From an uncultured Gaiellales bacterium (lineage in GTDB: Bacteria > Actinomycetota > Thermoleophilia > RBG-16-64-13): DNA of 64,000 nt. The stretch is from contig CAZWAR010000003.1 of assembly GCA_964631965.1 (NCBI GenBank), positions 2,064 to 66,063 of the forward strand. Reading direction: 5' to 3'. Position 1 is the stretch's first letter. Every line of letters starts with the position of its first letter. Positions 29,295-64,000 of the stretch are shown here, piece by piece. The position numbers were made by a program, and so were the translations under genes. The notes below the pieces were generated by a model that searched no databases, had not been told where the DNA came from, and was given only the letters and a program-made list of their open reading frames with translations.

Positions 29295-29744
29295 TCAGTC
29301 TTGGGGTTGAGGCTCGGGCGGGAGGTTCGTTGTGAACCTGATCCTATCCTCGGGAGTGCCCGTGGGCTGGTGAAAGAAGGTGGGATTGCTGCAGGCAGCG
29401 CTCGCTGCCCCCGGGTACGCCTGTTCCACCCACACCTTGCACTGTTTGCGCGGCGAGCGATTGAGCTTGATGGCCCCGTACGTATCGACCCCCCGCGCAC
29501 GGCCGCGGCGGTTCTCGAACGCCGAGAGGTCGAATTCGGGCGCAAAGACCTTGTGCAGGCAGCCGAACATCCTGGTCTCGTCGTCGTCATACACGTAGAC
29601 CGAGGAGCAACCGGAATCGAGGCAATGCTGGGGCGAGACGACCCTCTCACAGATGACCTCGCACTCCCGGCACTCCAAACGGGTACGCTGCAGCCGGCGT
29701 CTCCATGCTCCAAGCCTGCTAGAGATGCGGGAATGTCTCTCCAT
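29295..29744 (-). CDS. Cys-rich hypothetical protein (unknown function)
   Basis: 149 aa with CRECEVICE...HCLDSGCSS...FGCLHK. I recognise no family. Confidence 0.4.
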   Translation of the reverse strand: MERHSRISSRLGAWRRRLQRTRLECRECEVICERVVSPQHCLDSGCSSVYVYDDDETRMFGCLHKVFAPEFDLSAFENRRGRARGVDTYGAIKLNRSPRKQCKVWVEQAYPGAASAACSNPTFFHQPTGTPEDRIRFTTNLPPEPQPQD

Positions 29745-29807: not shown

Positions 29808-30809
29808 TCATTCGACGGCCTCACGGCGCGTACCGGGTACCAGCCTCGTGCGCACCAGGGATCGGTCGGTGGCCCAGCGAAGCACTGCAGGTGAGAACGT
29901 CACTCCGCCGTCGACCCCCATGTCAACAGTTCGCGTGGCGAACACGGCCCCATGCAGCCTCGTCCCCTCCAGGAACACAGCTCCCCCGTCAGCGACGATG
30001 ACCCCGTACACGTCCCCGCGTTCGCTCGCATCCACCGATGCCCCACCGATGACCACGAACAGAGCCGGCATGGTCGCCTCGTTCCCCCAATCGGCCGGTA
30101 TGGAGGTGGTCCCGGACCGGCGATCAAAGATTATGACCTGCGGACCCGGTGCCAGACCGTCCCGGGCGGGGAGACCGTCTGCACCGACAGCCGGCGCGGA
30201 GTCCATGCAAAAACGCCGCCAGCCGTCATCGAGGCCCCACGAACGCCCTAGCCCACTCAGGCTGACACCTGGACCGAGAAGTGGTGACGGTGAAGCCATC
30301 CTCACAAGTCCGGTCGGCTGAAGGCCTACGGCCTCCTCGGTCTGCAACCAGGCATTCGCCCGCCCGGACGCCCAGGTGACCTGATCGGCCACCAAGCCGA
30401 CGAAAGGCAAATCGAATCCGTCGCTTCCGCGCTCGATCCATGCAGACACCTCGACCGGCAACACCGACGTCTCATGCGCCGCGGTGACCTCGAGTAGCAG
30501 GTCCGGGCTCCCCGTCCCCGCGGCGACACTCGCCCACACCCCCGCCGGCCAGCCGTCGCGAGCGTCAAGTCGCCGCTCGAACGTACTCCAAGAACCGAGC
30601 AGGTCGTCGCGCACCCATGCCAGTGCGCTATCGTTCTCTTCCATCAACAGCCGTCCCCTGGCCTCGGCTTCGTTGCCGCTGTCGAGACACACCGCCACAG
30701 CGGCCACCACCTGGACCAGCACCGCTACCCCCAGGCAGACGAACAACACCAACAGGAGAATGGACCCCTCCTCGCGGGCAGACGCGGGCCGCCCGGAGAG
30801 GCCGCTCAC
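29808..30809 (-). CDS. GspK/ComGG-like pilus-associated membrane protein (N-terminal TM helix, no Glu+5)
   Basis: In-frame GTG at 30809 overlaps the TGA of the upstream pseudopilin (GTGA coupling). The N-terminus is VSGLSGRPASAREEGSILLLVLFVCLGVAVLV. It is the last gene of the pseudopilin run. Confidence 0.5.
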   Translation of the reverse strand: MSGLSGRPASAREEGSILLLVLFVCLGVAVLVQVVAAVAVCLDSGNEAEARGRLLMEENDSALAWVRDDLLGSWSTFERRLDARDGWPAGVWASVAAGTGSPDLLLEVTAAHETSVLPVEVSAWIERGSDGFDLPFVGLVADQVTWASGRANAWLQTEEAVGLQPTGLVRMASPSPLLGPGVSLSGLGRSWGLDDGWRRFCMDSAPAVGADGLPARDGLAPGPQVIIFDRRSGTTSIPADWGNEATMPALFVVIGGASVDASERGDVYGVIVADGGAVFLEGTRLHGAVFATRTVDMGVDGGVTFSPAVLRWATDRSLVRTRLVPGTRREAVE

Positions 30810-31465
30810 CGACCCACCTCGGTTGAAGCCACCATTTCCGGCCGACCAGGACCACGATCGGCTCGGCCGACCAGATGAATGAAAACCGTGTCGAGCTGAC
30901 AAAGCGTAGTGGCCGGCATCGCGTCGCATTCTTGCCCGAGGCAAACGAAAGAGAACCTCGAGCTGGTGGTGTCCACGTCCTCCAGCATGGTCTTGCTGTC
31001 GCGATAGAGGGCGTGAGGGAAGACCTCGGGCATGAGAGCCGGACAGAAGCCCCAGCGACGCATGAGCGTCCCCCCTATCAACTCCCATTCGACTATGGTC
31101 GACACTCCCGAATCAGACAACCGGAGCAACACGAGCTGGGATGGCGTGGCCTGCAGAACCAGCCCGTCGACTTGGAAGGCGCAGCCGGAAGCGGTGGAGA
31201 GCCGCACATCCTGCTCGAGCCTCGCCACCGCCACCCGCCCCTGCGCGACCCACACCGCGTTGTCTCCCTCGACTGCCGCTAAGGACTCCAACGACACCCA
31301 GATGGGTGCCACTGCGAGTGCCAGACACAGGGCAAGAGCAAGGCCGAGGAGCACCTCTATGAGCGAATAACCCTCCGAGCCGGCGGCTCCGACCCCCCTC
31401 CTCTCGGGCCGGCACGCCCCCCGCATGCTCCTGACCCACCGGTCGAGGCGTACCGTCCGAGACCT
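30806..31465 (-). CDS. Prepilin-type N-terminal cleavage/methylation domain pseudopilin
   Basis: ...GSEG|YSLIEVLLGLALALCLA (G-1, E+5). The start is assumed at MRSRTV. Confidence 0.65.
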   Translation of the reverse strand, partial: RSRTVRLDRWVRSMRGACRPERRGVGAAGSEGYSLIEVLLGLALALCLALAVAPIWVSLESLAAVEGDNAVWVAQGRVAVARLEQDVRLSTASGCAFQVDGLVLQATPSQLVLLRLSDSGVSTIVEWELIGGTLMRRWGFCPALMPEVFPHALYRDSKTMLEDVDTTSSRFSFVCLGQECDAMPATTLCQLDTVFIHLVGRADRGPGRPEMVASTEVGR

Positions 31466-31475
31466 CATAACCCGT

Positions 31476-32252
31476 CTAGAAGTAGAGGTCGACACCCCGC
31501 CCCTCCTCCATCCACCACCATTGCCATTGACCGCCGAGCGCCGCCCCGGCCCAGCCTGACACCGGCGGATCCGCGGTGAAGACCAAGCCTGGCGGATGCG
31601 CCATGACCGGCTCCGATCCCCAGGAGACGTGCATGGCGGACGTGCCCGCCTGGGGGCGATGGACCACCACGGCCGGACTGAACGAGGGCAACCCTGCCGA
31701 GACGTTCGCTGCCGGTGGGCCTCCGGTGGGAGCGGGGACGACCGACCGCCGGGGCGGCCCCCAGATTCCATCGCCGGTTCGGACCCGGGCGATCACTTCG
31801 TCGCCTTCGAGCCCTGTCCACTTCCAAGGTTCTATCCGCGTCTCTCCAGGCAGGTCGGGTTCGGCGCTCGCGTCGAGCACGGGCGTCTCCAGGAGGAGGA
31901 GCCCGTCCGCCCATATGCCCAGCGTGGCCTCCGATGTCGACGAACACGCCCCGGGCGCGGTGCTCACATGTAGAACCGGCCCCGGACCCCACCAAGCCCC
32001 AGCCACTCTGGGGCCCCACTCCCAGGCCGCGGCCGTAGCGGGTGCCCAGGCCGCGGACTGAGCGCCGGCAGCCTGTCTCGCCAATCGAGACCGTTCGACC
32101 ACACCGGCGAACGCTGTGAAGAGAGGAACCACCAGGATCCCTACGAGCGCAACGGCCGCGATGACCTCCAAGAGTATGAAGCCGTCTCGCAACCGCAGGA
32201 GGCGTCGCAGGGTGCGCGCTCGCCTCCTTTTCACTGCGCCGCCTCCTCGCAA
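31476..32252 (-). CDS. Prepilin-type pseudopilin
   Basis: ...LRDG|FILLEVIAAVALVGILV prepilin motif; 258 aa. Confidence 0.65.
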   Translation of the reverse strand: MRGGGAVKRRRARTLRRLLRLRDGFILLEVIAAVALVGILVVPLFTAFAGVVERSRLARQAAGAQSAAWAPATAAAWEWGPRVAGAWWGPGPVLHVSTAPGACSSTSEATLGIWADGLLLLETPVLDASAEPDLPGETRIEPWKWTGLEGDEVIARVRTGDGIWGPPRRSVVPAPTGGPPAANVSAGLPSFSPAVVVHRPQAGTSAMHVSWGSEPVMAHPPGLVFTADPPVSGWAGAALGGQWQWWWMEEGRGVDLYF

Positions 32253-32761
32253 GACCTCCTGGTGAGGCCACTCTCCAGACGCACCGTGACCCGGTAGTCG
32301 TCGCCCGGAGCTTTGAAGTAGACGGAGCCGGCCGCATTGGGATGACCGGAGAGAGCGGCAAAGACGACGATCACCCCCTGGGCGGTCCGCCAGCGGGGAA
32401 CGTTTGCGACCTCGGCCACTGGGGGAACGGCGCTCCCGAGGTCCCAGCTGCTGCCACCCGGGTCCGCCGCTACGGCCAGGCCGGCGGGTGACGATTCGAG
32501 GACTTCATTCGTCCCCTGCCACACTGCTCCGGTTTGGGCGCACGCTGCCGCCACCTGCCATATCTGGGCTCCGCCCCTTGCCTCCACCGTCTCGATACCC
32601 CGGGGCAGCAGCACCAGCCCGATTGCGAGACAGATCCCCAGTAGTACGAGGACGACCAGCAGCTCGACGAGCGAGTGCCCCGATTGTCCGGAAACTACCG
32701 GGTGGGCGGAGGCTGGATGAGCGGCCCGCGAGCGAAGCCTTGAGTGCGTCCCACTTTGCAT
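32231..32761 (-). CDS. Prepilin-type pseudopilin (GspH-like position)
   Basis: ...SGQSG|HSLVELLVVLVLLGI (G-1, E+5). The N-terminal extent is uncertain. Confidence 0.6.
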   Translation of the reverse strand: MQSGTHSRLRSRAAHPASAHPVVSGQSGHSLVELLVVLVLLGICLAIGLVLLPRGIETVEARGGAQIWQVAAACAQTGAVWQGTNEVLESSPAGLAVAADPGGSSWDLGSAVPPVAEVANVPRWRTAQGVIVVFAALSGHPNAAGSVYFKAPGDDYRVTVRLESGLTRRSCEEAAQ

Positions 32762-32834
32762 GGGCCAAGGCTACTGGGGGTTCGGCCGATCAGAGATCGG
32801 ACCTTAGTCTGGCGCTGGCGGAGGAGGCACGTGA

Positions 32835-32865
32835 GGCCGGCGGCGCTCGCACGAGCGCCCGGCCT
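32835..32865 (-). terminator. GC-rich hairpin downstream of pilin gene 1 (candidate attenuating terminator between major pilin and pseudopilins)
   Basis: ggccgg-gcgctcg-tgc-gagcgc-cgccggcc inverted repeat 70 nt after the pilin stop. Confidence 0.4.
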
Positions 32866-32933
32866 GCCGAACGAGCAGACCAGGGCGGACCCGGCCTCCG
32901 CCTTCTCCGACAATACTCAGAATCTGCGGTCGG

Positions 32934-33479
32934 CTACCAGCCTAGTCCCGCAGTCCCCTCGATGACCTTCACCTTCACGTAGCCGCTCTCAGAAACGTTC
33001 AGCGCGTTGACCTGGATGCCGAACATGTTACCGCTCTCGCTCTTGCACGCCAGGTCGACGATATCCCCCGACTCTGGGTAGTACTCCACCTGGTTTGCCG
33101 CCGCGTCGGCGGTTAGCGCGTCGCTTATCCAGGCCGGTTCCGTGCTCACCAGATCATCGTCGGCCCGAATGAAATCGATACTCGGCTCGATGGCGTGAAG
33201 ATCGTCCGCTTCGATCAGTGTGTAGTCGTTTGTATCGACGAAAGCGCCCTGGATCGCGGTGAGAGAGTTTCGAACCAGCGAGTAGGCCGCTGCGTCCTGG
33301 GCGTGCTGGCGCTGCCCCATGAAGGTGGGGATGGCAATGGTGGCCAACACGGCGATGATGATGATGACGACCAGCAGTTCGATGAGCGTGAACCCGGCCG
33401 CGGCGTGACTCCCGACTCGGAGACTCCGCAGCATCCGCTGCCAGCGCCTGTTCCACATTATCTTCTCGATGGTCTTCAT
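32934..33479 (-). CDS. Type IV pilin (PilA-like major pilin), paralog 1
   Basis: ...AAAG|FTLIELLVVIIIIAVLATIAIPTFMGQRQ; C-terminus ...GTAGLGW. Confidence 0.8.
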   Translation of the reverse strand: MKTIEKIMWNRRWQRMLRSLRVGSHAAAGFTLIELLVVIIIIAVLATIAIPTFMGQRQHAQDAAAYSLVRNSLTAIQGAFVDTNDYTLIEADDLHAIEPSIDFIRADDDLVSTEPAWISDALTADAAANQVEYYPESGDIVDLACKSESGNMFGIQVNALNVSESGYVKVKVIEGTAGLGW

Positions 33480-33513
33480 GAGCCGCGCCCTCCTTCTGCG
33501 GCTTGATAGTATG

Positions 33514-34158
33514 TCAGGACGTGCTAGGGGTCGTGTTGTTCAAGTCCAGGGTGAGCCCCGATGCCGCAGCTATCCGACGCAACTCGTCCACTTCTCCCGC
33601 TCTTCCCTGCCGCTCGAGGAGCGAGATCAATACCACATAGGCGTGGGGATAGGAGCTGTCAGTCACCAGTGCCCTTCGCAAGCTGGCCTCAGCCGATTCT
33701 TCTTCTCCGGCGGATAACTGGGCCGAGCCCAAGAAGCTGAGATACTGAGCCGTGGGCTGGAGCCGACACGCTTCCTCGAATACCTGCACGGCTTTCCCGG
33801 CCTGCTCTTGGTGGTTCAGATAGTTGAACCCCAGTTCCACCCTGATCTGGGCTTCTCCGGGGTCCATCTCCACAGCCTTCTCCTGGACGGGAAGCGCTTC
33901 ATCCCACCGACGCTGAACGTACAGCACGGCGGCGAGAGCTTTCGTGGCAGAGACATCATCGGGATGCGCCGCCACGCATTGCTGGTAGAGCTTCGCGGCT
34001 GCGGCGAGATCCCCGGACTCCATCGCCTTCCCGGCTTGAGAAAGCGTACCGGAGCAGCTCGCCAGGGCGACGGCCAGCAGCACGAACGAGACCATGGATA
34101 CCCAGCGGGTGATGGTCGCTCTGTGGTTTGTGTCTGCCCGGTCGGGTCTTTCCTGCAT
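33514..34158 (-). CDS. TPR-repeat lipoprotein
   Basis: 214 aa with a signal peptide and lipobox (ALASCSG) and TPR-like repeats. Located between the two pilin paralogs. Confidence 0.65.
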   Translation of the reverse strand: MQERPDRADTNHRATITRWVSMVSFVLLAVALASCSGTLSQAGKAMESGDLAAAAKLYQQCVAAHPDDVSATKALAAVLYVQRRWDEALPVQEKAVEMDPGEAQIRVELGFNYLNHQEQAGKAVQVFEEACRLQPTAQYLSFLGSAQLSAGEEESAEASLRRALVTDSSYPHAYVVLISLLERQGRAGEVDELRRIAAASGLTLDLNNTTPSTS

Positions 34159-34236
34159 CTGCGACTCCTAGCGAACTCCGGACTGGATACCACCGTTCTT
34201 GGTGACGTTCGCAGCCAGAGCAGTTACTTGTCCTCT

Positions 34237-34274
34237 AGCGAAATGGGGCCCCACAGATGGGGCCCCATTTCGCT
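34237..34274 (-). terminator. Perfect 16-bp-stem palindrome downstream of pilin gene 2
   Basis: agcgaaatggggcccc-acagat-ggggccccatttcgct begins 19 nt after the pilin-2 stop. Confidence 0.5.
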
Positions 34275-34292
34275 CAGGTTTCGTCTTGATGA

Positions 34293-34775
34293 TTACCAGC
34301 CGGCGCTGGTGTCGCCGTCGATGGTCTTGACAAAGGTCGTCGAGCCTCCGGCGCCCTTGTCGGTCACCACGCCGAACACGTTGCCGGATTCGCTAGCGGT
34401 CGCGATCTCGAAAGTGGTGCCATCGCCGAAGAAGTCCACGGCAGCGTCGGTAGCCACCTGGGTCGCAGCCACGGCCGGCGTATCCGCGCAGACGCCGCCG
34501 TCGGCGTCTTTGACGAATTCAATCGACGGCTCGATAGCGTTGAGCTCGTCGCCGGTCACATCATACGTGCGGGAGTCGACATAGGCGGATTCCAGGGCGG
34601 TCATGGCATTGCGGACGAGTGATTTAGCAGCTGCGTCCTGGGCTTTCTGACGCTGGCCCAGGAAGGTCGGGATGGCGATCGCCGCCAGGATGGCGATGAT
34701 GATGATCACCACCAGGAGTTCGATGAGGGTGAAACCTTTTTCGCCCTTCATCCTTTTGTGGATCTTCATGAACAT
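34293..34775 (-). CDS. Type IV pilin (PilA-like major pilin), paralog 2
   Basis: MFMKIHKRMKGEKG|FTLIELLVVIIIIAILAAIAIPTFLGQRQ...SAGW. GGAGGAGGA Shine-Dalgarno 8 nt upstream of the start. Confidence 0.8.
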   Translation of the reverse strand: MFMKIHKRMKGEKGFTLIELLVVIIIIAILAAIAIPTFLGQRQKAQDAAAKSLVRNAMTALESAYVDSRTYDVTGDELNAIEPSIEFVKDADGGVCADTPAVAATQVATDAAVDFFGDGTTFEIATASESGNVFGVVTDKGAGGSTTFVKTIDGDTSAGW

Positions 34776-35312
34776 CGTGTGTGTTCCTCCTCCTGTTTGT
34801 TCGCGGACTCTTTTTGTTTGAGACCGCGAACCTTTCGCGGCCCAGCACGCCAGGTGTGACGTACCGCTTTCTTCATCGGCCAGTGTGGGGCAGGACTTTA
34901 GGGTTTCTTTTGCGACTTTGGTGCAATTTTGGCGCGGCTGTCTACTGAGAGCTCGCACACGCACGTCGAACGCGCCCTATATGGACCATTCGAAGCCCCG
35001 AACGGCACCTCGGCCTAAAGGCCCAACCCGCGCCTGCCGATACTCCTGACAGGACTAGAACGGGGGTCAACGTGGTCCCGGCCGAGTCTTCTCGGATCCC
35101 TCCTCCAGAGAGGGTCATTCATCCGCCATGCGGCCGAAACCTCAAGGCTTGTGCGGTTCTGCCGATACACATGGAGAACCCATCGAGGGAGGCACCGAGG
35201 CATGAATGCTTCAGCGCTCAGGTATAGGATCGGTCCGGCCAGATCCTCAGATGATCGCCCGTGTCCAGACGCGCGCCGTCGCGGAACCGGAGACCGGCAC
35301 CGCCTGCGCGAG

Positions 35313-36881
35313 ATGGTTGGACGCACTCGAGGCTTCACCGTAGTCGAGGTGCTGGTCGCGGGTCTGGTGCTCGTGGTCGGCCTCATCTTCATCGCCCACT
35401 TCTTCACGGCCTCGGCCATGCGCGTGCTCGCCTCCGACACCCGGTCGGTCATGGCTCAGATCGCCACCGAGGAAATCGAGACGATCCGCGGTCTGCAGTA
35501 CCAGGACATCGGCACGGTCGGCGGCCACCCGCCCGGGCAACTCGCAGCCGTCGAGACCGTCAACAGGGAAGGGAGCGACTTCGAGATCCAGCGAGACATC
35601 ACTTACTTCGAGGACGACGCGTACTCCGGGCCGTATCCGGCCAACTACCGCCGGGTCACAGTCACCGTTACCGCGCTCGATAGCGACGCTCTCGACCCCG
35701 TCGTCATGACTACGAACATCGCGGGTGGTGCGAAAGGAGGCACCCTCGACATCACCGTCACCGATCTGAGCGGTCAGGGCCTGCCGGACGCTCCCCTCGT
35801 CATCTCGGACAACCTGCTGGTCCCCCACGTCTTGATAAACGCCCCCACCATCCGCACCGACGGAACCGGCCATCTCCAGGTGCCCGGCTTGACCGAGGAC
35901 CCCAACGGCGGCTATTTCGTCAGCGCGAGTTACCCGGGCTACAACAGCGCAGCCCTGGAACAAGGGGTAGTCGTCGCGACGGGCCAGACCACGGTGGTCC
36001 AACTGATCATGGACAGGCTTGCGACCATGCACATCCACCTGACGGACCAGTATGGCACCGCCCTCTCAGGGGTCCCTCTCCGGGTCACGGGATTCCTGTC
36101 CGTTAGCCCATGGACCTTTGAGCAGACAGTCACCACCGATAGCAGCGGCAATGCCACACTCGAGGACATCCGGTTCTCGACCTCTCTCGAGCCGTACTTC
36201 ATCGAGCTCGTCACACCGCACAATCCGCCGCTGGCTCTGCCCACCGGCGTGAGCGCGCCTGCCATCGATTCCAGCTTCCTGCCTCTCCCGGACGGTAAGA
36301 TCCCGGTAATCCTCGATCCCGGTCAGACCCAAACTGTCAACCTCGTCGTATCCACCGGTCCTGCCGTCACTTCCGTAAGTCCGGCCAGCGGCGGCCCGTC
36401 CGGCGGCACCACAGTTGTCATCAACGGTGCGAACTTCAATGGAGCCACCGCAGTCAAGTTCGGCAGTACCGACGCGGCCAGCTTCGTCGTCGACTCCGCT
36501 GCCCGCATCACTGCGGTCTCTCCGGCAGGCTCCGGCACCGTAGACATCACCGTGACCACACCCAACGGCACTTCGGCCCAGGTCGCGGCCGACCAGTACA
36601 CCTACGTGTCGCTTCTTCCCCCAACGGTGCAAGCTGTGAGCCCCAGCAGTGGCTACCGGGGTGGCGGCACGACGGTAGTCATCACCGGCACGAACTTCGT
36701 CAACGTGACCAAAGTGCAGTTCGGATACCGGGATGCGGACAGCTTCATCGTCGAGTCCAGTACGACGATCCGGGCCGTCACACCTTCGGGCTGGGGCACT
36801 GTCGACGTGACCGTCACCAATTCGGCGGGGGCCTCAGATACCTGGTGGGGCGACTGGTTCACATACACCTGGCGCAGGTAG
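35313..36881 (+). CDS. Modular prepilin-type protein with beta-sandwich and two C-terminal IPT/TIG domains (putative pilus adhesin / minor pilin)
   Basis: MVGRTRG|FTVVEVLVAGLVLVVGLIF prepilin leader; internal PEGA/CarboxypepD_reg-like segments; two IPT-like repeats (PAVTSVSPASGGPSGGTTVVINGANF..., PTVQAVSPSSGYRGGGTTVVITGTNF...). Confidence 0.7.
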   Translation: MVGRTRGFTVVEVLVAGLVLVVGLIFIAHFFTASAMRVLASDTRSVMAQIATEEIETIRGLQYQDIGTVGGHPPGQLAAVETVNREGSDFEIQRDITYFEDDAYSGPYPANYRRVTVTVTALDSDALDPVVMTTNIAGGAKGGTLDITVTDLSGQGLPDAPLVISDNLLVPHVLINAPTIRTDGTGHLQVPGLTEDPNGGYFVSASYPGYNSAALEQGVVVATGQTTVVQLIMDRLATMHIHLTDQYGTALSGVPLRVTGFLSVSPWTFEQTVTTDSSGNATLEDIRFSTSLEPYFIELVTPHNPPLALPTGVSAPAIDSSFLPLPDGKIPVILDPGQTQTVNLVVSTGPAVTSVSPASGGPSGGTTVVINGANFNGATAVKFGSTDAASFVVDSAARITAVSPAGSGTVDITVTTPNGTSAQVAADQYTYVSLLPPTVQAVSPSSGYRGGGTTVVITGTNFVNVTKVQFGYRDADSFIVESSTTIRAVTPSGWGTVDVTVTNSAGASDTWWGDWFTYTWRR

Positions 36882-36885
36882 AGCT

Positions 36886-37596
36886 ATGAACAACAAGACA
36901 ATCTCATCGAAGGCCCGCTTCTGGCTCTCGCTACGGAGCCCCAGAGGATTCACGCTGATCGAACTGCTGGTGGTCTGCCTGACCGCGGGCATCCTGGGTA
37001 TGGCCATCCTAGGCGTATACGAGAGCGTCATGCGCTCGTGGGCCGACACCAGCCACCGCATCGTCAACCAGGACGACGCGCGCTACGCCATCAACGAGAT
37101 CGCCCGCTACCTCCGCATGGCTGAGTCCTCGGCCTCCAACCTCTCGTCCCAGTCGGACGCAATCGCTACGGCCACGGCGAGCGAGCTCGTCTTCTACGCC
37201 GATATCAACGGCGATGGACTGGCCGAGAAGTGCCGGTACTACCTGGATGGTACGACTCTCCGGCTGGCCACCCTTCCCCCGGATACCTCCGACAGCCCGC
37301 CTACCTACCCCACTGAGTACGTCACCGACGGAGTCGTCATCATGCAGGGCATCCAGGACCCCAATCTGTTTACGTACTACAGGCTGAACCCGGCATACGC
37401 CCTCAATCCCATACCGGAGAATGACACCCTGGAACAGGTGGTCAATCCCGCTTCAGCGGCCGATCTGCGGAGCATTGTCGCCGTCGACATCCGTCTTCGG
37501 GTGAACGAGACTCCCGGCTTGCCGAAGGCCAATGTGGCCTTGGACACCCGTGTCCAGATCCGCCAGCGCTACAACGGAGGTCTCAGTGGAGTCTAG
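36886..37596 (+). CDS. PilW-like minor pilin (prepilin-type)
   Basis: ...SPRG|FTLIELLVVCLTAGILGMAILG; 236 aa. Confidence 0.65.
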   Translation: MNNKTISSKARFWLSLRSPRGFTLIELLVVCLTAGILGMAILGVYESVMRSWADTSHRIVNQDDARYAINEIARYLRMAESSASNLSSQSDAIATATASELVFYADINGDGLAEKCRYYLDGTTLRLATLPPDTSDSPPTYPTEYVTDGVVIMQGIQDPNLFTYYRLNPAYALNPIPENDTLEQVVNPASAADLRSIVAVDIRLRVNETPGLPKANVALDTRVQIRQRYNGGLSGV

Positions 37597-39139
37597 ATCT
37601 CGCACCATCGGCCGTCTACCGGGTCGCCTCGGCCTGCGACTGCAGAGCGAGCGCGGTTACGTGTTGATCCTCGCCATGCTGGTGTTGGTAGCCATCGGTA
37701 TGGCCTCGGCCGCCCTGCTCTCGGCGATATCCGTGAACCAGCAGCACGTGTCCCGCGACCGGTCCTACTCGCAGTCGCTCACTGTGGCGGAAGCGGGCTT
37801 GAACCAGTACCTCTGGATGGTGGCGAGCGGAGAAAGCTCGCGCAGCAACGGTTTCGCCATCGCCGGCAACACCGAGGCCGATGACCCCTTGTTCAAGGAA
37901 TTCGAGTTCAACGACATCCACGATGCCTCGGTCAAGGGTGTGTACGCCACGCAGGTGTCCCCTCCCAGCGCAACGAACCCGAACGTGACCGTGACGGTCA
38001 CCGGGCAGGCGACCTCGCCCATGGACACTCCGAGAACCGTCACTGCTTCTCTCGGGCGTCCCTCGTTCAGCCAATACCTGCTGCTCACCAACGACGAGGT
38101 CTGGATCGGTGGGCCGCTCGATCGCGTCTGGCACGGCAAGACCTTCTCGAACACCGGCATCTGTGTGGACACGGCCAACCTCGTCGAGACGATGTCCTGT
38201 TCCAGGGCCACGTATTCCAGCAGCATGTTCGGAGGCACTCGCAACGGCGTCTGGTCGGGCTACCTGTATACAGTCCCCCTCAACGATCCTTCCCGGGCGC
38301 TGTGGCAGTTCCCCGTGCCGGCCATCAGCTTCTCGACGGTGACCTCGGACTTCGTCAATCTGAACAGCCTGGCCGTAGGCAACGGGGTGAACCTACCGTA
38401 CTCAACAAGTACTTCGCACGGAGAAACCCAGGGTTGGTATATCAAGCTCCTACCGGACGAGAAGTACCAGATCAAGCGAGTGACCGCGGAAAGTGAGTCG
38501 ACGGGCGGGAGCGGCGGCAGCCTCAGCTACGTGAACCCCAGTTCCCCGGTTCCGAGCACGATTCTTAGCTACCCGACCAACGGCGTCATCTACGTGAACG
38601 ACAATGTGTGGGTGGAGGGCACCGACATCGATGGGCGCATCACCATCGCCAGTTCCGGGCAGCTCAACCCAACCGGCAAGAACTCGGCCACCTCCATCCA
38701 CATCGTGGGCAACCTCACCTACTCCCACAAGGATGGCACGGTCGCCGTGGGCCTCATCGCTCAGAACGACATCGAGATACCCCGATACGCGCCTTTGGGA
38801 GCGGGCGGTTCCGTCTCCCTGCAGGACATGGAGATCGACGCCGCGCTCATCGCGCAGCAGGGCAGAGAGTCCTGCAACGCGGCCGATTCGCTCAACAACG
38901 CATACGGGCCCGTCCGCGACATGCTCACCATCTACGGTTCGGTCAGCTCGTACCACACGCCCTATCGCAGCACGGTCAACAACTACGGTACGACCCTGGG
39001 CGGCTTCGCCAACGGCACGAACACGTACGACCCCTGGCTGCTGAACGACCCGCCGCCGTACTTCCCCACGGTCGGGAGCTACCAGATCCTGAACTGGCAG
39101 GAGTTGCCCAATACCCAGTCGGTGCTTCCCAGCCCATGA
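37586..39139 (+). CDS. PilX-like minor pilin with large C-terminal beta-helix-like domain
   Basis: GTG start after a GGAGG Shine-Dalgarno. PilX_N-like segment ERGYVLILAMLVLVAIGMASAALLSA...LTVAEAGLNQ. C-terminal repeated VxVxGxxIxGxI strands. Confidence 0.6.
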   Translation: MESRSRTIGRLPGRLGLRLQSERGYVLILAMLVLVAIGMASAALLSAISVNQQHVSRDRSYSQSLTVAEAGLNQYLWMVASGESSRSNGFAIAGNTEADDPLFKEFEFNDIHDASVKGVYATQVSPPSATNPNVTVTVTGQATSPMDTPRTVTASLGRPSFSQYLLLTNDEVWIGGPLDRVWHGKTFSNTGICVDTANLVETMSCSRATYSSSMFGGTRNGVWSGYLYTVPLNDPSRALWQFPVPAISFSTVTSDFVNLNSLAVGNGVNLPYSTSTSHGETQGWYIKLLPDEKYQIKRVTAESESTGGSGGSLSYVNPSSPVPSTILSYPTNGVIYVNDNVWVEGTDIDGRITIASSGQLNPTGKNSATSIHIVGNLTYSHKDGTVAVGLIAQNDIEIPRYAPLGAGGSVSLQDMEIDAALIAQQGRESCNAADSLNNAYGPVRDMLTIYGSVSSYHTPYRSTVNNYGTTLGGFANGTNTYDPWLLNDPPPYFPTVGSYQILNWQELPNTQSVLPSP

Positions 39140-62034: not shown

Positions 62035-64000
62035 CTAGTAGATATACACGTACGTCCCCACCGCCACCAGCGGATATATGGCGTCCTGATCCCAGTAGAG
62101 GGTCCGCACGCAGCCGTGACTGGCCGGATAGGTGGGCACGCTCGGATAGCCGTGGATAGCCAGCAGCGTCGTGCTGATGTACAGCGGGTGGTACCGCGGG
62201 CTGGTCTCCATTGTCTTGCGGGTCACCGTGTACGTGCGCGACGGGGTGACGATGCCCACGCTCGCACTTCCTGTTGACACGGGGATGGTCCAAACGACTG
62301 CCCCGTCCTTGCAGTAGAGCAGCACCTGCTTGGTCTTGTTCACTTCGATCCATGGGTTGGTTGCTCCGATCCTGCTTGGGCGGGGCCGGCTGGCCACCGT
62401 CAGCGCGTTGAGGACGGCAGCCGAGACCTTGCCGTCACGGGTGAGACCCTGCCACTTCTCGAAGGCGATGATGGCTCCCGTCGTCTTGCCGTCGAAGACG
62501 CCGTCGACGGTGCCGGGCCGGTATGACAGGTCGCTCAGCCTCTGTTCGACCCACAACCGTTGCCCTGCGGTCAACGTCAGTTCCCAAGGAAGCGTCCCCC
62601 GTATGTCGAAAGCATCAACGCTGATGAACGCTCCCTCGTCGTTCCCCTCGTCCCACGTGATCTCCACCACGTGCTCGCCGCTCCTCAGAAGGCCGGTGCT
62701 CCACGCCGCCTCCTGATAGACCGTACTGGGACTGTACAGGTCCACCAGTACGGGAGCGCTGCCGTCCACCGATACCTCCGCCGAGCCCATCTCCGGACCG
62801 AGAGTCGCGATCCAATCGAGACGGGTCCCGACGAAGTCGACGGTGATACCGCTGCCGCCGCCTCCCAGTTTGTAGTTCCCCCCCGAGGCGGACGGCGATG
62901 AGGCCACGTGCCAGGTGCCCGCGTTCAGCAGCCGCGGATCGTCCTGTTCGTAGCGCGCGGTGAAATAGGCCTGCAGCACATCACCCTCCACATCGAAGGC
63001 ATCGACGCTGATGTACTTGCCGACCGGATTGGAGGTGTCGTACCAGATCTTGACCTCGTGATCTCCCGGCGAGAGGTCCCCGGTCTCCCAGACCTTCTGC
63101 TGATAGGCCACCACGTCGGCCGCAAGGTCTACGTTCACGGCCGGACCCCCGTCCACCGACACGAACGCTCTTGCGAGGGTGGTTCCTCTGGTGGCGATCC
63201 AAGCGAGATAGGTCCCATTGAAGTCGACAACCGCAGCACCCGTCGGGCTGCTGGTGCGGGCATAGCTACCACCGGACGCGTTGCTCGTGAAGAACTCGGC
63301 CCAGGTGCCGCCTCCGAACGCTATACGCCCGTCTGTCTGGTCTACCCGACCCATCCCGCTGAGCGAGCCCAGCACGTCCACGGCGTCGATGGTGACGAAC
63401 TCCCCATATGCGCTCGTGTCGCTGCGCACGATTTTGACCGTGTGGAGACCGCCGTCGAGGTCCCCGGTCGACCACACCCTCTGCTGGTAGACGGCCACGC
63501 TGTTGCGGAGGTCGACGGTGGCGGCGAAGGCGTCGTCCAGATACACCTCGGCGATGCCGGTGGTGGTGCCTCTCATGGCGATCCAGTCGAGCCGGGTGCC
63601 GGTGAAGCTGACGGTGACGGAGGCGTCGGCGCTCGAGGAGCGGCTGTAGCTGTCCTGCCAGGCCAGGGTCTTGGCGAAGGGGGCCCAGCCACCGGCGTAG
63701 AAGAGGCGGGCGTCGGTCTGGTCGTAGCGCATCATGAAGGTGTAGTCGTCGGCGGCGGTGTTCGGGCTCGCGCCTCCGGCCGCCGTCACCACCACATCCA
63801 CCTTCCCGGTCGCGTGAGCCGGAGTGACCGCGGTGATCCGGGTGTCGGAGTCCACGGTGTAGCTGGCCGCGTCCATCCCTCCGAAGGACACCGCCGAGGA
63901 GCCCGAGAGGCCGGTGAAGCCGGTGCCGGTGATGACGAGGGGAACGCCTCCGGCGCTGGGGCCGGAATCGAGGCTGAGGCCGGTCACGGTGGGGGCAGGG
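62035..64000 (-). CDS. L,D-transpeptidase (YkuD) family protein with IPT/TIG domain and tandem ~120-aa repeats; 5' end beyond window
   Basis: C-terminal YkuD catalytic domain (HGYPS...ASHGCVRT), a peptidoglycan-binding-like segment and three tandem repeats (about 62602-63732). The reading frame stays open to the window edge. Confidence 0.75.
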   Translation of the reverse strand, partial: PAPTVTGLSLDSGPSAGGVPLVITGTGFTGLSGSSAVSFGGMDAASYTVDSDTRITAVTPAHATGKVDVVVTAAGGASPNTAADDYTFMMRYDQTDARLFYAGGWAPFAKTLAWQDSYSRSSSADASVTVSFTGTRLDWIAMRGTTTGIAEVYLDDAFAATVDLRNSVAVYQQRVWSTGDLDGGLHTVKIVRSDTSAYGEFVTIDAVDVLGSLSGMGRVDQTDGRIAFGGGTWAEFFTSNASGGSYARTSSPTGAAVVDFNGTYLAWIATRGTTLARAFVSVDGGPAVNVDLAADVVAYQQKVWETGDLSPGDHEVKIWYDTSNPVGKYISVDAFDVEGDVLQAYFTARYEQDDPRLLNAGTWHVASSPSASGGNYKLGGGGSGITVDFVGTRLDWIATLGPEMGSAEVSVDGSAPVLVDLYSPSTVYQEAAWSTGLLRSGEHVVEITWDEGNDEGAFISVDAFDIRGTLPWELTLTAGQRLWVEQRLSDLSYRPGTVDGVFDGKTTGAIIAFEKWQGLTRDGKVSAAVLNALTVASRPRPSRIGATNPWIEVNKTKQVLLYCKDGAVVWTIPVSTGSASVGIVTPSRTYTVTRKTMETSPRYHPLYISTTLLAIHGYPSVPTYPASHGCVRTLYWDQDAIYPLVAVGTYVYIY

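Follow-up and report, generated by a model that had tools for sequence, protein, structure and literature searches.

We analysed a 64,000-nt stretch of DNA from an uncultured Gaiellales bacterium (contig CAZWAR010000003.1 of assembly GCA_964631965.1), the whole of which is referred to below as the window. At 35313-36881 on its + strand lies an open reading frame (ORF) that encodes a 522-aa protein, with the stop codon inside these coordinates, and whose product begins MVGRTRG|FTVVEVLVAGLVLVVGLIFIAHFF. It is the first of three genes in an operon, and the ORF, its homologs and its conserved syntenic position identify it as the gene for a modular minor prepilin, in which a type IV pilin module is followed by four tandem immunoglobulin (Ig)-like domains. 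The conclusion that the protein is a modular type IV minor pilin with a head of the GspI/PilV structural class (the I class) is well supported. We further consider it probable that this pilin sits in a tip complex with its operon partners, where the Ig-like rod would be an adhesive or ligand-reaching module.

The N-terminus fits the signature of type IV pilins, in which a leader ending in Gly-1 precedes a hydrophobic +1 residue, Glu+5 and a hydrophobic stretch of ~20 residues. The minimal leader, MVGRTRG (35313..35333), ends in Gly-1 at a predicted prepilin peptidase site, G|F. A first-pass annotation, made from the letters of the DNA, had proposed a class III leader here, and the proposal held, as the motif can be read directly from the sequence and is conserved in orthologs. 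Across 19 aligned orthologs, Glu+5 was invariant, Phe+1 was found in every sequence covering the site, and Gly-1 in every such sequence bar one, which had Ala. The hydrophobic segment was likewise conserved, and the region upstream of the cleavage site, including that encoded by 35202..35312, varied in both length and sequence.

The same annotation had placed the start at MVGRTRG, and this part of its reading is less secure than the cleavage site. The enclosing + strand ORF extends from 35151 to 36881, and the sequence upstream of ATG 35313 lacks a Shine-Dalgarno-like motif. An in-frame ATG at 35202 is preceded, at a distance of 9 nt, by GGGAGG, and NCBI begins its version of the gene there (P0001, 559 aa). 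Because both the Shine-Dalgarno-like element and the NCBI start point to ATG 35202, the true start may lie there, in which case 35202..35312 would extend the leader from 7 to 44 aa. Leaders of ~14-41 aa were found in the orthologs as called, and of 14-24 aa in the other prepilins of the cluster; classical type IVa leaders, at 5-7 aa, are shorter than the latter. The mature protein and the cleavage site are identical with either start. A start downstream of the hydrophobic N-terminus was considered and rejected: alternative starts occur only upstream, and conservation begins exactly at G|F.

We modelled the protein with AlphaFold2 (AF2) from an alignment of its orthologs, obtaining a mean pLDDT (predicted local distance difference test) of 82.4 and a pTM (predicted template modelling score) of 0.46. 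The domain folds are credible at these values and the mutual arrangement of the domains is not reliable. This prediction, which had been suggested as a check in the first-pass annotation, returned a helix, a head sheet, two beta-sandwiches and two TIG domains, in a clear layout of five modules. The pilin module opens with its alpha-1 helix (residues 8-59, 35334..35489), which is defined by AF2 and by the PilV model TIGR02523 and has a hydrophobic N-terminal half that includes Glu5; AF2 placed it at residues 10-59 in the full-length model and 4-55 in a model of the module alone. The head (residues 60-139, 35490..35729) is a four-stranded antiparallel sheet of the GspI/PilV structural class, with predicted strands spanning residues 80-137. 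The module thus shows the lollipop fold of type IV pilins, in which a helix of ~50 residues packs against an antiparallel beta-sheet.

Beyond the head, a first beta-sandwich of CarboxypepD_reg type (residues 140-235, 35730..36017; AF2 strands 143-233) corresponds to a region that in homologs matches PF13620, PF17802 and PF02369, and a family profile searched against the PDB matches NOMO2 and carboxypeptidase D regulatory domains. The second sandwich, together with a conserved Pro-rich linker (residues 236-347, 36018..36353; AF2 strands 237-345), gave a weak Pfam match to MG4 at residues 239-283 (E 0.02). It is kept in all orthologs, and those that lack TIG domains terminate here. PEGA/CarboxypepD_reg-like strands had been predicted for this middle region. 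The protein itself has no PF13620 or PEGA match in Pfam at E<=0.1; such matches do occur in close homologs (P0008, P0009, P0022 and P0040-43), and of 92 sampled relatives 87 match PF13620 and 20 match PEGA. The CarboxypepD_reg label is therefore supported by homology and AF2 fold, and not by a direct match.

The two IPT/TIG domains were recognised directly. TIG domain 1 occupies residues 348-433 (36354..36611; AF2 strands 351-431, pLDDT ~87-95), and TIG domain 2 residues 435-520 (36615..36872; AF2 strands 438-519), at the distal end, with a Trp-rich tail, TWWGDWFTYTWRR. Pfam TIG (PF01833) matched two stretches with E 1.6e-22 and 79.7 bits against a cutoff of 20.9, the best stretch being residues 437-505, and the NCBIfam model CoaZ_rpt_PGGG matched TIG domain 2 with 49.8 bits against a cutoff of 30. 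Scores above the Pfam gathering threshold, a pLDDT of ~87-96 and Foldseek matches to the IPT domains of plexin and MET all place the pair in the IPT/TIG family, as first proposed. Neither of the two outcomes named beforehand as fatal to the proposal, an absence of TIG matches or a start beyond the hydrophobic N-terminus, was found.

A Foldseek search of the PDB with the full-length model returned tandem Ig/IPT proteins (plexin, MET, Bacteroides SGBP-B, invasin and sortase pilins); because these dominate the matches, the search is uninformative on the pilin head. The SpaA and PitA folds among the matches, and PF17802 in homologs, prompted us to consider a sortase-assembled pilin of SpaA type. 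We rejected this candidate, as the N-terminus is of the prepilin type and the C-terminus (...FTYTWRR) has neither an LPXTG motif nor a membrane anchor; the resemblance to SpaA and PitA is confined to the tandem Ig-like domains. At 36840-36878 (DTWWGDWFTYTWRR), four Trp fall within the final 13 residues, where close orthologs have one (for example, DTWSGDRFTFNNRQ). It is speculation that this aromatic patch, at the end of the distal TIG domain, could be a site of glycan contact.

The solved structures nearest to the pilin head were GspI, XcpV and EpsI, followed by Thermus competence pilins, GspK, and PilB and PilA of Streptococcus sanguinis. This similarity to solved I subunits assigns the head to the I class; the GspI model of NCBIfam, TIGR01707, did not match the protein. 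In pairing a pilin module with a domain that is not specific to type IV pili, the TIG domain being present twice, the protein is a modular pilin in the sense of Raynaud et al. 2021.

Searched against 5.8 billion proteins, the sequence retrieved, besides the identical NCBI call, ~20 full-length relatives at 57-74% identity, and some orthologs of ~360 aa that terminate exactly where the TIG domains begin. When the N-terminal 346 residues were searched against 1.8 billion representatives clustered at 50% identity, this core (the pilin module and the CarboxypepD_reg-like domains) retrieved 1,048 clusters at E<=1e-3 and 24 at E<=1e-30. N_methyl was matched by 54 of the 92 sampled relatives, and TIG by the window protein only; TIG-bearing members form a small clade of ~20 sequences. 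The named close relatives are proteins from metagenome-assembled genomes (MAGs) of Thermoleophilia and other Actinomycetota, and a single-sequence query of a species-representative genome set gave one related locus, in an Actinomycetota MAG, at 71% identity. NCBI labels the relatives P0281, P0287, P0310 and P0317 'carboxypeptidase regulatory-like domain-containing protein', missing the prepilin N-terminus, and JGI labels relatives 'pseudopilin PulG'.

Two of the sequences are disrupted. In the MAG ortholog of locus L001 (9731-11552) two overlapping ORFs take the place of a single gene, and the translation of P0022 enters its first TIG domain out of frame (...SPTSGTPSWRHQRHHH...). These frameshifts are probably assembly errors, with pseudogenisation as the alternative.

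Among close relatives the number of TIG domains is 0, 1, 2, 3 or 4. TIG1 of the window protein is orthologous to the first TIG of P0002, P0004 and P0005 (74-77% identity), and TIG2 to the last TIG of the same proteins (63-67%). In proteins with three or four copies the internal repeats are closest to each other, at 76-81% identity within P0003 and 78% within P0017, which points to intragenic tandem duplication. In a neighbour-joining tree of the core, drawn without bootstrap, the TIG-bearing proteins fell in one clade with the single-TIG P0102 as the deepest branch, and the TIG-less P0040, P0042, P0043, P0064 and P0075 were nested inside it; read from these sequences, the history suggests one gain and one secondary loss. 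Copy number would thus have changed through gain, intragenic duplication and loss, a pattern that would suit a distal module tuned in length or valency from lineage to lineage.

TIG domains of this type are common in secreted actinobacterial proteins, where hundreds of Sec-type TIG arrays share ~50-57% identity with them. Only 6 of 103 TIG-array proteins checked had a prepilin motif, and all 6 belong to the pilin family described here. At the end of the window, a - strand ORF cut by the boundary (62035-63987) combines TIG, CE2_N-like, PG_binding_1 and YkuD L,D-transpeptidase domains. The recurrence of the IPT fold in this enzyme had been noticed in the first reading, and its TIG domain proved to be 44-49% identical to those of the pilin, so that this genome uses one repeat type in more than one envelope protein.

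The Ig-like domains could instead be structural and not adhesive, forming a spacer or sheath that would help the nascent tip complex through the thick wall or S-layer of a monoderm actinobacterium, or a stopper for retraction, with TIG number tracking envelope thickness. Such a role would account for copy numbers from 0 to 4 and for the presence of a TIG of 44-49% identity in a peptidoglycan-binding L,D-transpeptidase; TIG and CarboxypepD_reg domains are commonly stalks, as the SGBP-B, plexin and MET matches illustrate, and no recognisable binding domain occupies the distal end. Spacers, however, normally bear something at their far end, and here the TIG domains are themselves distal. Moreover, TIG-less orthologs occupy the same locus in otherwise syntenic genomes, which argues that TIGs are not needed for assembly. 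We regard a purely structural role as unlikely.

The second gene of the operon (36886..37596, +) begins 4 nt after the stop codon of the first and encodes a minor prepilin of 236 aa (RG|FTLIELLVV, with Glu5; N_methyl E 3.4e-5), a candidate J-type partner that is kept downstream of the orthologous gene in syntenic loci. The third (37586..39139, +) starts at GTG 37586 after GGAGG, overlaps the second by 11 nt and encodes a pilin-like protein of ~517 aa (RG|YVLILAMLV), a candidate capping subunit of K/PilX type. It lacks Glu5, as does its ortholog in locus L002 (HG|YVLILALLIL), and it had no match in Pfam or NCBIfam. Sequence searches of the PDB, Pfam and NCBIfam with the two partners matched at most the N-terminal helix and assigned no J or K class. 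Minor-pilin tip complexes are capped by a subunit without Glu5 (PMC10191384, PMC9934059).

Divergent from this operon, on the - strand, lies a gene for a PilA-like major pilin of 160 aa (34293..34775; KG|FTLIELLVV; N_methyl E 4.8e-9), with NCBIfam matches to the PilA_Myxo and GspG families below cutoff. A second PilA-like pilin, of 181 aa (32934..33479, -), is its paralog at 49% identity. Four minor-pilin-like genes follow (29808..32761, -), recognised by the motifs G|HSLVE, G|FILLE, G|YSLIE and G|SILLL in their translations; N_methyl matched the product of ORF 32231-32761, the last gene of the set is the one without Glu5, and the genes are conserved in syntenic loci. In all, the two divergent operons, 29808-34775 (-) and 35202-39139 (+), hold nine pilin-like genes. 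The three-gene and four-gene sets both end in a Glu5-less protein and are two possible alternative tip complexes, an arrangement that recalls the multiple minor-pilin clusters of Myxococcus.

Two metagenomic contigs proved syntenic, with DUF4015 and deacetylase genes on one side of the cluster and dUTPase, dapF, miaA, miaB, RNase Y, recX and recA on the other. The same slot is filled in one contig by a two-TIG ortholog and in the other by an ortholog that has no TIG. A tetratricopeptide repeat (TPR) lipoprotein gene (33514-34158, -; lipobox LLAVALASC), also conserved in syntenic loci, lies between the two PilA-like genes; its product matches PilW (TIGR02521) and the social-motility lipoprotein Tgl weakly, with scores below threshold. 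PilW and Tgl are secretin pilotins in diderms, which makes the match unexpected if the host is a monoderm actinobacterium. At the end of the - strand minor-pilin operon is a Cys-rich ORF of 149 aa (29295-29744, -; CRECEVIC...CLDSGC), and at this position the syntenic loci have a gene of 150-162 aa without a Pfam match. The remainder of the window is housekeeping, including recG, a riboflavin operon, priA, metK, recA, ftsK, RNase J and PNPase.

The filament need not be a pilus in the narrow sense: it might be a secretion pseudopilus or a Com-like DNA-uptake pilus, with the Ig-like rod handling substrate or DNA. The best structural matches are to pseudopilins of the type II secretion system (T2SS) and to Thermus competence pilins, the JGI label of relatives names a pseudopilin, and the window holds neither PilT nor other machinery that would define the filament. 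The fold match, though, does not discriminate, since I subunits are common to all classes of type IV filament, and next to the gene are those of two PilA-like major pilins with mature lengths of 146-152 residues, whereas ComGC-type pilins are shorter. Actinomycetota are, on our assumption, usually monoderm. The named close relatives come from Actinomycetota MAGs, and the T2SS is restricted to diderms (PMC10191384). We consider a non-pilus filament very unlikely.

In the mechanism that we favour, a prepilin peptidase encoded elsewhere would cleave the protein, which would pair in the membrane with its two co-transcribed partners to form an I-J-K-like complex. This complex would prime pilus assembly and remain at the tip, from which the four Ig-like domains would project as a thin rod of ~12-16 nm, a length estimated from typical domain size, as inter-domain geometry was not reliably modelled. 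The distal TIG domains would be the first to meet the environment. Most likely, the rod would give the pilus an adhesive or ligand-reaching module of its own, filling the role of the non-pilin PilY1 in diderm type IVa pili (T4aP), or of the modules grafted onto PilB and PilC in S. sanguinis. Because the proximal domains have a carbohydrate-binding-like fold, our best guess for the putative ligand is a glycan or a cell-surface polymer. It had been noted at the outset that PilY1, which usually supplies adhesion at the tip, is a separate protein; no PilY1-like protein or PilY1 beta-propeller (PF05567/IPR008707) was found in the pilin or among the scanned neighbours.

A pilin of this kind could also be placed elsewhere in the filament, inserted sporadically along the shaft with its Ig-like rod pointing sideways to make pilus-pilus or pilus-surface contacts. 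The non-core minor pilins PilV, PilX and ComP of Neisseria are the model for such insertion. The retained Glu5 means that another subunit could sit above this one, and the tip complex proper could come from the other minor-pilin set, a complete HIJK-like one encoded on the - strand; Raynaud et al. allow that modular pilins may be in the shaft if the linker is flexible (PMC8179133). Set against this are the I class of the head, which nucleates tip complexes (PMC9934059), co-transcription with a Glu5-less subunit of capping type, and a 380-residue appendage that is easier to fit at the tip. On balance, a place in the shaft seems improbable to us.

Several points weigh against the tip location and adhesive role that we prefer. 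We identified neither a binding site nor a ligand nor a motif specific to adhesion, and for this reason 'adhesin' is a term that we infer. TIG and CarboxypepD_reg domains are often mere spacers, as in the stalk of Bacteroides SGBP-B, which was among the fold matches. With a full-length pTM of only 0.46, the geometry of the rod is not established. The candidate J and K identities of the partners rest on gene order, size and Glu5 status, and the 64-kb window contains no gene for a prepilin peptidase, an assembly ATPase or a platform protein. No precedent was found for an I subunit that carries a module; the I-like subunit of S. sanguinis is the one without a module.

The pilin assignment itself draws less than uniform support from sequence and structure models. 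The NCBIfam PilV model TIGR02523 matched residues 6-60 below its cutoff (E 1.6e-5; 25.4 bits against 52.2), a Foldseek search with the pilin module alone gave no significant match, and the N_methyl models PF07963 and TIGR02532 did not match at E<=0.1. N-terminal methylation models favour FTLIEL-type sequences, and PF07963 was matched by the ortholog P0017. The missing N_methyl match, like the NCBI name of the relatives, would suit a membrane-tethered surface protein in which an uncleaved signal anchor precedes the Ig-like repeats. Given the conserved Gly-1, Phe+1 and Glu+5, we regard this as essentially excluded.

A bolder extension of the tip model, which we regard as less likely than not, makes the I subunit itself the tip effector in this actinobacterial lineage, with an exchangeable distal module in place of PilY1. 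Either minor-pilin set could then prime the same PilA filament and give it a different tip. Some members of the family have nothing at the distal position, and others have a third CarboxypepD_reg-like domain, one that resembles an InlB B repeat, or one to four TIG domains. If this extension is true, the choice of tip and the number of TIG domains would set what the pilus grabs and at what distance.

The grafting of modules onto pilins is already known, and pairings of pilins with PF13620 and with TIG are already catalogued. What may be new is the specific family, the attachment of the module to an I-class subunit that keeps Glu5, and the series of 0-4 TIG domains, of which the forms with none and with two share one genomic slot. 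The locus offers a clear and well-conserved case of a modular pilin from uncultured Actinomycetota, in which the module is carried by the I-class nucleator and not by its partners. Type IV pili are, to our knowledge, almost unstudied in Actinomycetota. Because public annotation misses the prepilin N-terminus, pilus loci in MAGs of Thermoleophilia and other Actinomycetota are probably under-recognised, and recognising this family as minor pilins would improve the annotation of such loci. Close orthologs that differ only in TIG number (0-4) form a natural series bearing on the role of distal Ig-like repeats.

The modular minor pilins of Gram-positive type IV pili, which the first-pass annotation had invoked, are the right frame for comparison (Raynaud 2021, PMC8179133; Shahin 2023, PMC9934059). 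Raynaud et al. 2021 defined modular pilins and reported >1,200 of them in 264 architectures; their Dataset S1 lists 66 proteins of the architecture IPR012902-PF13620 and 5 of IPR012902-IPR002909 (TIG) (PMC8179133). These entries follow the same grammar, a prepilin motif and then a CarboxypepD_reg-like or TIG domain, and the wider family of the protein described here is mostly PF13620-positive. The entries were counted there, not studied, and an I-type head with two CarboxypepD_reg-like and one to four TIG domains is not described among them; a search of the literature available to us found no paper on TIG-bearing type IV pilins.

The classical I subunits of HIJK minor-pilin complexes, GspI/XcpV/EpsI in the T2SS and PilV/PilI in T4aP, have ~100-130 aa and no extra domain. 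The present protein differs from them in its 380-residue C-terminal extension and in sequence-model scores that fall below family cutoffs. CofB (from CFA/III of enterotoxigenic Escherichia coli, ETEC) and TcpB (Vibrio cholerae) resemble it in placing beta-rich domains after a pilin module; in CofB these are a beta-repeat and a beta-sandwich, and both proteins are located at the tip and initiate assembly (PMC8179133, PMC5207764). Each, however, is the single minor pilin of a proteobacterial type IVb system, and neither showed similarity to the present protein in the searches made.

Further parallels are in S. sanguinis and in diderm T4aP. PilB (vWA) and PilC (lectin) of S. sanguinis, which act with PilA, are likewise modular minor pilins (PMC8179133, PMC9934059). 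Here the modules are four tandem Ig-like domains, not a vWA or lectin module, and they are borne by an I-class subunit that keeps Glu5, whereas the I-like PilA of S. sanguinis is small, non-modular and without Glu5. No sequence homology to the S. sanguinis pilins was detected, and the role of the present protein is putative. PilY1/PilC of diderm T4aP has the role proposed here, that of a large modular adhesive element on a minor-pilin tip complex, but is a non-pilin defined by its C-terminal beta-propeller (IPR008707), whereas the present protein is a pilin. The proposed complex would thus parallel both the PilABC complex of S. sanguinis and the PilY1-capped HIJK complex.

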